Positions 1 to 1,938 of a stretch of DNA of 64,000 bases are shown one piece after another. A program made the translations under genes and the position numbers. Each line of letters begins with the position of its first letter. Positions within the stretch are counted from its first letter, which is position 1. Origin of the DNA: Escherichia coli (GTDB lineage: Bacteria; Pseudomonadota; Gammaproteobacteria; Enterobacterales; Enterobacteriaceae); assembly GCA_023061495.1 (NCBI GenBank), contig GCA_023061495.1_3643.1; one strand, 5' to 3'. The notes below the pieces were generated by a model. The model was given only the letters and a program-made list of their open reading frames with translations. It searched no databases and had not been told where the DNA came from.

Positions 1-843
1 ACATCTTCTGTGTAGTTTCTACGAATGAAGTTTACCATGCCGTAAAACTCTTCGTCAACACGCTTAAAGATATCATCATCCCAAATCTTCCAAGCTCTCC
101 CTCTCATCACGGCCTTCCGTGCCAGATAGTATGGAGACTTGATCTTCAGTTGCAGGTCATAAGGGTAGTAAGGTTTACGGATCATATACCCTTCGCCCCT
201 TGTTTCTGCAGCCAACTCTTTTGCATGGCTGAACGGAATTTCACGCACAGTGTGAGGACGTTTTGCACCAAGGTATTTGGCAATCCAGTCTAAAGCTGCT
301 TCTGGCAGCATTATTCCAGAATCATTGTATCGGCAACCGATCAAATAGGCACCATGATCTTCCTGAACAATATGCGGATCTGAAGGATGGCAAATTTCAA
401 ACATAAATGTCATATTTTCATTTCCCATAACCTTCTTGATAAGATCTAAATTACCACATTGATCCTGGATGGTTTCCTTTGCGAGATTACAATATGGGGA
501 ATCAAGAGATCCGGTTGTTGAGAATAATAGTTCACCTTTATGAGAGGATACCACGCCAAGGAATCCGTTCTTTTTCTCTACCGCCGTCACAAGCTTATTG
601 TCAGGCAGGTTGGTGGAGTTTTCTCCCAAGTTAAACACTTTTGTGAAGGGCCATGCCACAACATTTCCTTCATTACCGACAACAATGCCACGGCACTCCA
701 GTAGACGCGGAGACAAATGCCATAGATTGTTGTAGAATACTTTTCTGGCATATTTGTAGATCTTTAATCCAAGATCTGGATAATACCGACTGGTTACAAG
801 ACCTTTATCCACTAAATCATCTGCATTAAAATACTTCATCATA
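1..843 (-). CDS. RNA ligase, Rnl1-like (3' part of gene runs off the window; apparent +1 frame break near 780-786)
   Basis: Manual reverse-strand translation gives LLECRGIVVGNEGN, VFNLGENS, EKKNGFLGVV (KxNG nucleotidyltransferase motif I), FMFEICHPSDPHIV, EGYMIRKP...KIKSPYY, resembling T4 RnlA as I remember it. ATG at 841-843 with upstream AGGA opens a 21-codon frame that must shift by one base to join the long frame. Confidence 0.6.
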
Positions 844-965
844 CATTCCTCGTTTGTCATTTTGTCACTCTATCTTGCCACACAAATAAACCCGTGTCAA
901 CACTTGAAATGAACAAAATAGTTATGTATAGTATACTATCATTAAAATTAAAACGGAGGATTGCT

Positions 966-1376
966 ATGTCTAAAATGCTATATATCGTGCGTGGTCTACC
1001 AGGTTCTGGCAAATCAACACTGGCAAATGCACTATCTTTAGAAGGGCTGTATCCACATTTTGAGAACGACATGTTCTGGTACGACGACGATGGAAATTAC
1101 AACTGGGATGCAAGTAAAGTAACACTTGCAGCAAAATGGTGCAAAGATAACGTAGAAGATATGATGCATATGGGATACGACCGTATCGTGGTAAGCAACA
1201 CATTCACAAAAGAAAAACATGTGCAAGAGTATGTTGACATGGCTATCCGTCATGGGTATAGTTACACCGTAATCGTGGTTGAAAACAGGCACGGTAACAA
1301 AAGCATCCATAATGTTCCTGATAAGGTTGTGGATCGTATGGAGCGCGAGCTTAAAAACTGCATTAAACTTAAGTGA
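966..1376 (+). CDS. P-loop polynucleotide kinase-like protein
   Basis: Walker A GLPGSGKST near the N-terminus; AGGAGG RBS before ATG 966 (ORF track start 894 trimmed); small size and position next to ligase and phosphatase. Confidence 0.6.
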   Translation: MSKMLYIVRGLPGSGKSTLANALSLEGLYPHFENDMFWYDDDGNYNWDASKVTLAAKWCKDNVEDMMHMGYDRIVVSNTFTKEKHVQEYVDMAIRHGYSYTVIVVENRHGNKSIHNVPDKVVDRMERELKNCIKLK

Positions 1377-1383
1377 GGAATGC

Positions 1384-1938
1384 ATGAAATATTTTGTAAC
1401 AAGCGACACACACTTTCTCCACCAGCGGGTTATGGAGTTTGATTCATGTCAAAAGCACCGATCTCAGTATAATAGCAATCTTGACAGTATGAACGAAGGA
1501 ATCATCGCAGAGTGGAACTCTGTTGTATCACCGGAAGACACTGTGTTTCACTTGGGTGATATTGCATGCACTAAGGATAAGAATATCAACAACTTACTTC
1601 CAGATATTCTAAATATGTTGAACGGACATATTATTCTTGTTAGAGGAAACCATGACACAAGGACTACTGTAAGAATTATGAAAGAGTTCGGTCATGATGT
1701 TGTAGATTATTACGAGCTTAGACACAACAAAAATTTGATCTGCATGAGTCATTACCAATTCGCAACATGGAACCGCAAGCCCCACGGATCAGTTCAACTA
1801 TTCGGTCATGCTCACGGAACCACACAACAGTTGTTTGGCAGGCAGTTTGATGTAGGTTGGGATGTGTGGGGGAGACTGTTACCATTAGAAGAGGCATATA
1901 GCATTGCAATGTGTTTTGATATTGACAGCAGGGAGTAA
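1384..1938 (+). CDS. calcineurin-like metallophosphoesterase (candidate 3'-phosphatase partner of the kinase)
   Basis: Motifs VTSDTHF (DxH), GDIA, GNHD, HAHG typical of the metallophosphoesterase fold; ATG 1384 chosen over the overlapping track start 1279. Confidence 0.6.
   Translation: MKYFVTSDTHFLHQRVMEFDSCQKHRSQYNSNLDSMNEGIIAEWNSVVSPEDTVFHLGDIACTKDKNINNLLPDILNMLNGHIILVRGNHDTRTTVRIMKEFGHDVVDYYELRHNKNLICMSHYQFATWNRKPHGSVQLFGHAHGTTQQLFGRQFDVGWDVWGRLLPLEEAYSIAMCFDIDSRE

Follow-up and report, generated by a model that had tools for sequence, protein, structure and literature searches.

Three neighbouring genes at one end of a 64,000-nucleotide stretch of DNA filed under Escherichia coli (GenBank assembly GCA_023061495.1, contig GCA_023061495.1_3643.1; hereafter the window) raise the question whether a phage mends broken RNA with a pathway made of separate parts, and which damage such a pathway would answer. 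A preliminary description of the window had recognized an RNA ligase, a P-loop kinase and a calcineurin-type phosphatase, and had proposed that together they heal and seal tRNAs cut by host anticodon nucleases. All three genes are indeed present inside bases 1-1938, and their matches to Pfam and PHROG families exclude chance open reading frames. Because of their family membership, their intact catalytic residues and their conserved genomic linkage, we consider it reasonably likely that an rV5-like coliphage here encodes an RNA heal-and-seal pathway split over three genes.

The DNA itself is of phage origin. Bases 1-6000 are 95.9% identical over their full length to Escherichia phage FV3 (Vequintavirus, rV5-like), and at least 80% of this query is covered in 116 phage records. 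Judged by this similarity, the window is a Vequintavirus genome of the rV5/FV3 type. The three genes have already been labelled by annotators in GenBank. Along the matching stretch, the FV3 annotation lists an "RNA ligase 1 and tail attachment protein", an "ATPase", a "phosphoesterase", a small regulator, hypothetical proteins, a tRNA array, spanins and the large terminase. In other phage records, the kinase gene is named "polynucleotide kinase" or "3'-phosphatase, 5'-polynucleotide kinase". Literature searches combining rV5 with RNA ligase and kinase found no paper studying the ligase, kinase or phosphoesterase genes.

The ligase belongs to an RNA ligase family. It matches Pfam RNA_lig_T4_1 with 56.8 bits (cut-off 28.3) along the entire profile (positions 1-227 of 227), as well as PHROG 562 (E-value 8e-65), and its motif I reads VEKKNGF. 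A single-sequence phmmer search against the PDB sequences gave nothing meaningful. A profile of the ligase clade, built from 40 homologues that are 43-50% identical, had T4 Rnl1 as its sole PDB match (2e-12), and hhalign aligned the two with 97.4% probability over T4 residues 47-248. The residues R57, K74, F76, K96, N98, G99, E155, E223, G224, K239 and K241 are invariant in the 40 clade members. Among them, K96, E155, E223 and K239/K241 align to K99, E159, E227 and K240/K242 of the T4 enzyme. N-terminal elements specific for Rnl1 are present too, namely ECRG (with R57) and the invariant K74 and F76, which align to R54, K75 and F77 of T4 Rnl1, all three essential by mutagenesis.

Structure predictions with AlphaFold2 (AF2), which cover the ligase and the kinase, point in the same direction. 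The prediction was run on P0121, which is 97% identical, in place of the FV3 sequence, and the ligase model reached a predicted local distance difference test score (pLDDT) of 92.6. In a Foldseek search with this model, T4 Rnl1 came out on top (6e-12), followed by archaeal Rnl3 and the ligase domain of fungal Trl1 (1e-11 to 1e-8); Rnl5 and Rnl2 ranked lower (about 1e-5), and DNA ligases were at 1e-5 or worse. Profile, fold and motifs therefore place the protein with T4 Rnl1 and not with the DNA ligases, as the preliminary description had assumed. The proteins differ toward the C-terminus. About 60 residues follow motif V, forming helices at 243-306 in the model. None of the profile alignments extends past T4 residue 250, and nothing aligns to T4 residues 255-374, the C-terminal helical domain. 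This domain (residues ~255-374) confers tRNA specificity on T4 Rnl1. In line with the distance, the score against NCBIfam TIGR02308, the T4 RnlA equivalog, is 39 bits, compared with a cut-off of 242. By its sequence, the ligase is a member of a short Rnl1-family clade, mostly found on phage-sized contigs, and a true if distant homologue of Rnl1.

The second protein is a small stand-alone P-loop kinase. It scores 40.5 bits against Pfam AAA_33 (cut-off 27) and matches PHROG 2071 (2e-57) and PHROG 505, "polynucleotide kinase" (5e-10). Its family has at least 7,989 members at E-values <0.001, nearly all of them stand-alone proteins of ~130 amino acids. Besides the P-loop (GLPGSGKST, with G10, G15, K16 and T18 invariant), the family conserves Asp35, which follows strand 2 and is likewise invariant, a VSNTFT motif and the lid ENRHGN..HNVP. 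As with the ligase, a single-sequence phmmer search against the PDB sequences gave nothing meaningful. The family profile (41 sequences) matched, at E-values from 3.5e-6 to 5e-4 and in this order, RazKIN (9D8A, Rhizopus; best match, 3.5e-6), Pnkp1, a Lichtheimia kinase, seryl-tRNA(Sec) kinase, T4 polynucleotide kinase and the Pnk domain of C. thermocellum (CthPnk). Pnkp1 and CthPnk rank near the top by fold as well as by profile. With T4 Pnkp, hhalign gave 96% probability over the kinase domain, whose catalytic aspartate in T4 is Asp35. The D35 of the phage kinase aligns with the first Asp of the QDD in RazKIN and lies at most one residue from the T4 D35, the exact register being uncertain. 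In the region of the lid arginines that contact the NTP phosphates in T4, R108 aligns with T4 R122, and T4 R126 has Lys112 as its counterpart in this phage. RazKIN and related enzymes act in tRNA splicing and have been proven to phosphorylate the 5'-OH of RNA and DNA; in MciKIN, Asp36 is essential (PMC11571804). By profile and fold, the nearest relatives of the 136-amino-acid kinase appear to be polynucleotide and tRNA kinases rather than an unrelated nucleotide-kinase family, and it is a probable polynucleotide 5'-OH kinase.

Kinases of this ~130-amino-acid family, with the ENRHGN motif, are also common in Bacteroidota, Vibrio, Flammeovirga, Leptospira and others, where they are solitary and have no conserved neighbour. 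PADLOC gave weak matches of the kinase, at the level of the P-loop, to CARF/Csx3-AAA models, and ligase and phosphoesterase had none; we did not take these matches as a sign of descent from a defence system.

The third protein is a calcineurin-type metallophosphoesterase, as had been proposed. It is above the cut-offs of Pfam Metallophos (28.8 bits, cut-off 21.5) and Metallophos_2 (27.9 bits, cut-off 27), and matches PHROG 547 (2e-52). All metal-binding motifs (DxH, GD, GNH, H and GHxH) are intact, with D8, H10, G58-D59, G88-N89-H90, H123 and G141-H142-x-H144 invariant in 41 homologues. The family is large, comprising 12,252 clusters at 50% identity (E-value <=0.001). The one closely related protein of solved structure is aq_1665 of Aquifex aeolicus (PDB 1XM7), a metallophosphoesterase from structural genomics, matched at 5e-10 by the single sequence and at 5.5e-27 by the profile; the first three metallophosphoesterase motifs are shared over profile positions 2-120, and the C-terminal third aligns weakly. 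Further PDB matches of the profile included GpdQ (4e-5), YfcE and Rv0805. At E-values up to 0.1, neither lambda phosphatase nor the CthPnkp phosphatase was matched in the PDB.

Do these three proteins work together? Their neighbourhoods in unrelated phages argue that they do. Five phages, Aeromonas phage 2L372X, Vibrio phage 5P1b, Acinetobacter phage Acibel004, coliphage phi92 and Pseudomonas phage K8, have the kinase gene immediately after the ligase gene and in the same orientation. In phi92 and 5P1b, the phosphoesterase gene lies directly upstream of this pair, and in K8 and Acibel004 it is two to five genes away. Since ligase and kinase run in the same direction in all five phages, the inverted ligase of the rV5-like phages is best seen as a rearrangement of a conserved trio. 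A "phosphohydrolase" beside the K8 cassette (K8_032) proved not to be a metallophosphoesterase and was left out of the profile. Among cultured phages, the kinase was found in 627 records and the short ligase (at least 80% coverage) in 632, with a nearly equal breakdown by genus; the phosphoesterase is more widespread (1,410 records).

Uncultured viruses gave a similar picture. We examined 80 IMG/VR loci carrying the kinase, looking for partners within 8 kb, and collapsed them to 43 lineages at 80% kinase identity. The phosphoesterase was present in 52 of the 80 loci, an Rnl1-type ligase in 23, and both in 19. A different ligase, combining a PHA02142 OB-fold with PF09414 RNA_ligase, occurred in a further 21. 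At the level of lineages, 28 of the 43 had the phosphoesterase, always on the kinase strand and in half of these cases (14/28) abutting the kinase, and 26 had an RNA ligase of either the Rnl1 or the OB-fold plus RNA_ligase type. The linkage pattern was the same in freshwater and marine viral contigs. As a control, 80 bacterial and archaeal kinase loci were inspected. In 73 of them neither partner was found within 6 kb, and there was no conserved neighbour; some of the seven exceptions are located on phage-sized or short contigs of metagenome-assembled genomes (e.g., the 136,829-bp contig of locus L096). The cellular loci therefore offer no functional clue, but serve as a control for a linkage specific to phages.

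Fusion proteins among the relatives of the phosphoesterase link the same activities. It is fused to the same kinase (P0362), to a PF09414 RNA ligase (P0384), to HAD_SAK_2, the "HAD domain in Swiss Army Knife RNA repair proteins" (P0272), and to an HD domain (P0313). In Listeria phage LMTA-94, which has no kinase, the phosphoesterase is surrounded by a "putative RNA ligase", a "tRNA-splicing ligase", and HAD-like and DUF1768 proteins. Conserved neighbourhoods in unrelated phages, absence of the linkage from bacterial loci and fusion proteins together make the grouping of the three genes into one linked functional module, as predicted from their sequences, well supported.

How might such a module operate? 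A cut by a metal-independent ribonuclease would leave a 2',3'-cyclic phosphate on one RNA end and a 5'-OH on the other. The metallophosphoesterase would remove the cyclic phosphate or 3'-phosphate, possibly helped by the cRec protein that is encoded beside the ligase. The 5'-OH end would be phosphorylated by the 136-amino-acid kinase. The short Rnl1-type ligase would then adenylylate its Lys96, pass the AMP to the 5'-phosphate and seal the break. The enzymatic activities, the order of the steps and the choice of RNA rather than DNA as substrate are all predictions from sequence. The weakest link is the natural substrate: tRNAs cut by host defences of the anticodon-nuclease type, or by toxins, are a candidate which we put forward tentatively and with somewhat more doubt than conviction.

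The arrangement of the genes is summarized in Table 1. The ligase is transcribed divergently from the kinase-phosphoesterase pair, across an intergenic region of ~105-125 bp. Kinase and phosphoesterase are separated by 7 bases, and each is preceded by a Shine-Dalgarno sequence. A consensus scan found a sigma-70-like site (TTGAAA-17-TATAGT, 904-932, plus strand) upstream of the kinase, which is a pattern match only, and no plausible sigma-70-like site for the ligase. In the six-frame translation, the ligase frame runs from ATG 860 to the window edge without a stop. Its start is ambiguous, since FV3 annotates ATG 860, and the product in the Vequintavirus Bas54 has 305 amino acids, which corresponds to ATG 842. 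ATG 842 or 839 is the likelier start, because of the length of the Bas54 product, because the consensus of the 40 homologues begins with MKF.., and because residues 2-7 are disordered in the AF2 model (pLDDT <50). A GAGGAA Shine-Dalgarno sequence also favours ATG 839-842. The gene following the phosphoesterase (1986-2336, plus strand) encodes a small helix-turn-helix protein (HTH_36, 25.7 bits; DUF6945, 27.3 bits). Some records named "Campylobacter phage" (MG0656xx) share 94-98% identity with rV5-like coliphages across this region; they are unannotated, and their host labels look doubtful.

Table 1. Location of the repair genes, their key residues and their surroundings (positions in the window unless FV3 is named)
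Feature	Position	Strand	Remarks
Rnl1-like ATP-dependent RNA ligase	860..1	minus	N-terminal 286 of 311 codons (FV3 orthologue, 311); last 25 codons beyond the left edge
Ligase catalytic residues	R57, 690-692; K96 (motif I), 573-575; E155 (motif III), 396-398; E223 (motif IV), 192-194; K239/K241 (motif V), 138-146	minus	
Divergent intergenic region	861..965		between the ligase and the kinase operon; holds the kinase ribosome-binding site GGAGGA
Stand-alone P-loop kinase, predicted polynucleotide 5'-OH kinase	966-1376	plus	136 amino acids
Kinase residues	P-loop K16, 1011-1013; invariant D35, 1068-1070; R108 of the lid ENRHGN..HNVP, 1287-1289	plus	
Stand-alone binuclear metallophosphoesterase, aq_1665 (PDB 1XM7) clade, predicted RNA 2',3'-cyclic-phosphate / 3'-phosphate healer	1384-1938	plus	184 amino acids
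Phage tRNA array	4859-5672	plus	Arg(TCT), Tyr(GTA), Ser(TGA), aberrant 99-nt gene, Thr(TGT), Met/Ile(CAT), Pro(TGG); ARAGORN; context, not shown to be part of the cassette
cREC_REC, then SIR2	FV3 locus L001: 5578-5928, 4808-5569	minus	followed by "nucleotide pyrophosphohydrolase"

The surroundings in FV3 suggest that the unit extends beyond the window. Just left of window base 1, a cREC_REC gene (53 bits) overlaps the ligase stop codon and is followed by a SIR2 gene (95 bits). The cRec domain was defined as a predicted cyclic-phosphate-processing domain with operon links to RNA ligases and NAD-processing enzymes (Iyer et al. 2021, PMC7824862). Other cRec homologues are encoded in 15 of the 80 viral kinase loci and in phi92, where the gene is located three positions upstream of that for the phosphoesterase. 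The functional unit probably consists of five genes, two of which (cRec and SIR2) are located outside the window. Other genes recur within 4 kb of the kinase in the IMG/VR loci, coding for a Nudix hydrolase (27/80), a DUF192 protein (31/80) and an unannotated protein of ~103 amino acids (31/80). Many of these loci are closely related, and the recurrence may reflect lineage synteny. In Pseudomonas phage K8 (locus L006, 3918-6744), genes for a phosphoribosyl pyrophosphate synthetase and a nicotinate/nicotinamide phosphoribosyltransferase lie directly downstream of the ligase-kinase pair. They look like an NAD-salvage pair, and the K8 cassette looks to be placed in a counter-defence-like region.

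The tRNA set of the phage lies about 3 kb from the cassette, as previously described, and consists of seven predictions, six of them above the Rfam threshold. One gene, at 5328-5426 (plus strand, 99 nt), is aberrant. ARAGORN reports it as "???", and in intron mode as "Gln with a 5-nt intron"; its Rfam tRNA score is 33.7 bits. Its anticodon arm, AGGA-UUUUUAA-UCCU, provides U33, the anticodon UUU and A37, and the gene has a long variable arm and discriminator A. A near-identical Bas54 gene is annotated as tRNA-Lys (AAA). The gene of the window may thus encode a tRNA-Lys that resists nucleases or serves as a decoy. The tRNA-Lys(UUU) is the substrate of PrrC and a reported target of PARIS. The joint presence of an unusual tRNA-Lys and of a repair cassette in one phage is circumstantially consistent with the anticodon-nuclease idea. 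A second member of the array, at 5510-5584 (plus strand, anticodon CAT), is called Met by ARAGORN and tRNA-Ile (ATA) in Bas54, which implies a lysidine-modified CAU anticodon.

Are the three genes needed for infection? A saturated transposon library of the Vequintavirus Bas54 was described in a 2025 preprint (10.1101/2025.11.20.689424), and the Bas54 orthologues share 98% (ligase), 94% (kinase) and 92% (phosphoesterase) identity with the proteins of the window. All three genes are non-essential on E. coli K-12 according to this preprint (10.1101/2025.11.20.689424), with insertions at 56 of the 60 TA sites of the RNA ligase (bas54_0209), 33 of the 36 of the polynucleotide kinase (bas54_0210) and 26 of the 27 of the phosphoesterase (bas54_0211). 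The sirtuin gene (bas54_0207; 48/51 sites) is likewise non-essential, and the cRec gene (bas54_0208; 16/21 sites) is classed as Intermediate. The N-terminal domain of T4 rnlA, in contrast, was intolerant of insertions (10.1101/2025.11.20.689424). Since the Bas54 ligase tolerates insertions at nearly all of its TA sites, infective virions can be assembled without it. The insertion data fit an accessory, host-dependent function, and do not show the purpose of the cassette. The orthologue of the helix-turn-helix gene (bas54_0212) is also classed as "Intermediate"; 17 of its 20 TA sites carried insertions, but with few reads, which sets it apart from the dispensable genes beside it.

Several points weigh against the interpretation of the cassette as an RNA heal-and-seal pathway, or against tRNA as its target. 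In two Bas54 competitive-fitness resampling tables of the preprint, whose available portion leaves unconfirmed which comparison each table represents, the three genes show no significant change (log2 fold changes of +0.3 to +0.4, adjusted p 0.75-1.0). The Bas54 libraries listed there were on the clinical strains CFE303 and CFE311, and no host with a defined anticodon nuclease is among those in this list. The phosphoesterase, judged by sequence, is of a different clade from the lambda-phosphatase/CthPnkp metallophosphoesterases, for which RNA 2',3'-cyclic phosphodiesterase activity was demonstrated, according to the available part of PMC2190708. Searches of the literature on aq_1665/1XM7 found no functional study, so that its closest structural match says nothing about the substrate. 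Without most of the T4 C-terminal domain, a preference of the ligase for tRNA cannot be assumed. The closeness of the tRNA genes, which the preliminary description took as a pointer to an anticodon-nuclease role, is not conserved; tRNAs were found near none of the five other phage loci and near 13 of the 80 viral loci, and this proximity therefore adds little. Finally, three phages (FV3, phi92 and Aeromonas phage 2L372X) have a gene for an ATP-dependent DNA ligase within 3-4 kb, and with such a ligase only a few genes away there is room for DNA end processing.

The last point leads to a reading in which kinase and phosphoesterase process DNA ends, that is, 5'-OH and 3'-phosphate nicks, for the nearby phage DNA ligase, with the RNA ligase homologue being unrelated. 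There are polynucleotide kinases, the Mucorales enzyme among them, that act on both DNA and RNA, and the phosphoesterase has a match to NCBIfam PdeM, a ligase-associated DNA-damage enzyme, but this match is weak (19.8 bits) and far under the cut-off of 150. The recurrent partners of the pair are the RNA ligase families PF09511 and PF09414, not DNA ligases, and the fusion partners of the phosphoesterase include an RNA ligase and a HAD domain of RNA repair; we hold DNA end processing to be quite improbable. About equally improbable is that the three genes are unrelated neighbours, encoding a protein phosphatase or second-messenger degrader, a nucleotide kinase and a ligase for tail-fibre attachment. 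Such a view can draw on the annotations mentioning tail attachment and an "ATPase", on the breadth of AAA_33, on the solitary bacterial homologues of the kinase, and on an Enterococcus phage whose phosphoesterase has RNase H and a Ser/Thr phosphatase as neighbours and lacks a nearby ligase. It conflicts with a linkage conserved across at least six phage groups and with the existence of the fusion proteins. A role in tail attachment is further contradicted by the insertions tolerated in the Bas54 ligase, to which the N-terminal domain of T4 rnlA stands in contrast.

A closer competitor accepts that RNA is healed and sealed, and differs in the purpose. The breaks could stem from toxin-antitoxin RNases, colicins or collateral cuts by CRISPR systems, or the enzymes could, along with cRec and SIR2, serve an RNA-end transaction linked to NAD. 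The shortness of the Rnl1, with no alignment past T4 residue 250, is in favour of this, as are its co-transcription with the cREC_REC and SIR2 genes and the Nudix genes near many of the viral kinases. Moreover, the healing pair combines with three ligase types, which suggests a general end-healing service. Nevertheless, the phage carries the aberrant tRNA-Lys(UUU), and tRNA-Lys(UUU) is the classic target of anticodon nucleases, and the T4 precedent for ligases of the Rnl1 type is tRNA repair. On balance, we regard a purpose other than defence against anticodon nucleases as rather unlikely.

The RNA heal-and-seal pathway remains our preferred reading, and it can be extended, as a possibility that we hold with marked reservation, to phages at large. 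The aq_1665-type phosphoesterase and the ~130-amino-acid kinase might constitute a distinct RNA end-healing pair, maybe among the commoner ones in tailed phages, that joins at least three ligase types (short Rnl1, long Rnl1 and OB-fold Rnl2/5-like) and cRec, SIR2 and Nudix partners. Together with the aberrant tRNA-Lys(UUU) of rV5-like phages, it could allow these phages both to replace and to repair tRNA in the face of defences that cut tRNA-Lys, such as PrrC and PARIS, and the short Rnl1 would recognize its substrate without a tRNA-binding domain of the T4 type.

Immunity by tRNA cleavage (PrrC, RloC, PARIS, retron-PtuAB, Cas13) is now recognized as widespread. To our knowledge, T4 Pnkp together with Rnl1 is the only phage repair answer that is understood experimentally. 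The cassette described here would represent a second architecture, whose healing parts are non-orthologous. Hundreds of cultured phages carry it, therapeutic candidates among them (Vequintavirus, Pakpunavirus, phi92-like phages, Seunavirus, and myoviruses of Acinetobacter and Vibrio), as do many uncultured phages. If active, it would provide a new family of RNA 3'-end-healing phosphoesterases and a minimal RNA kinase, help to explain host range on strains with tRNA-targeting defences, and supply compact enzymes for the manipulation of RNA ends. The cassette is directly testable, because a saturated transposon library exists for a phage whose proteins are 92-98% identical.

How does the cassette compare with known repair systems? 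Modules of this kind have already been predicted in general terms, and the cassette with cRec and SIR2 fits the predicted phage RNA-repair neighbourhoods of Iyer et al. (2021), which are computational predictions centred on jumbo phages. In the literature examined, the trio of an aq_1665-type phosphoesterase, a 130-amino-acid kinase and a short Rnl1 in myoviruses of ~90-150 kb has not been named. The Mucorales tRNA splicing enzymes (an RNA ligase and the RNA 5'-OH kinase MciKIN/RazKIN) likewise have their healing and sealing activities on separate small proteins. They belong to eukaryotic tRNA splicing, seal 3'-OH,2'-PO4 ends, are GTP-specific and include no metallophosphoesterase, and the similarity is confined to the kinase core.

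The bacterial Pnkp-Hen1 (C. thermocellum Pnkp) and Pnkp1-Rnl-Hen1 systems also combine a P-loop polynucleotide kinase with a metallophosphoesterase as the 2',3'-phosphate healer, as far as the available portions of PMC2190708, PMC3675462 and PMC4411300 describe them. A metallophosphoesterase as healer of RNA 3' ends therefore has a precedent, although from a different clade. In the Pnkp1 system, as in the cassette, the ligase is on a separate polypeptide. In the bacterial systems, however, one polypeptide combines kinase and phosphatase, and a Hen1 methyltransferase belongs to the set, whereas the phage phosphoesterase is of the other clade and its ligase is of the Rnl1 type. No Hen1 is annotated in FV3 over bases 54,873-115,000 of its 136,947-bp genome.

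A close functional parallel is T4, in which Pnkp (pseT) and Rnl1 (rnlA) counter PrrC by the same three chemical steps that are predicted for the cassette. The ligases have the same catalytic residues, the kinase and the kinase domain of Pnkp are homologues, and in both cases the genes are non-essential on laboratory E. coli. The contrast drawn in the preliminary description is correct: in T4, kinase and HAD phosphatase are fused in Pnkp (PMC3592404, in its available part), while in the cassette they are separate, and the phosphatase is a binuclear metallophosphoesterase instead of a DxDxT/HAD domain. Furthermore, the ligase has 311 amino acids, compared with 374 in T4 Rnl1, and lacks most of the C-terminal domain, and the Bas54 ligase is dispensable, while the N-terminal domain of T4 rnlA is not. 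The cassette would work like the T4 Pnkp/Rnl1 and the bacterial Pnkp systems, but is a member of neither, because its healing enzymes are split, its metallophosphoesterase is of another clade and its Rnl1 is short and without the T4 C-terminal domain.

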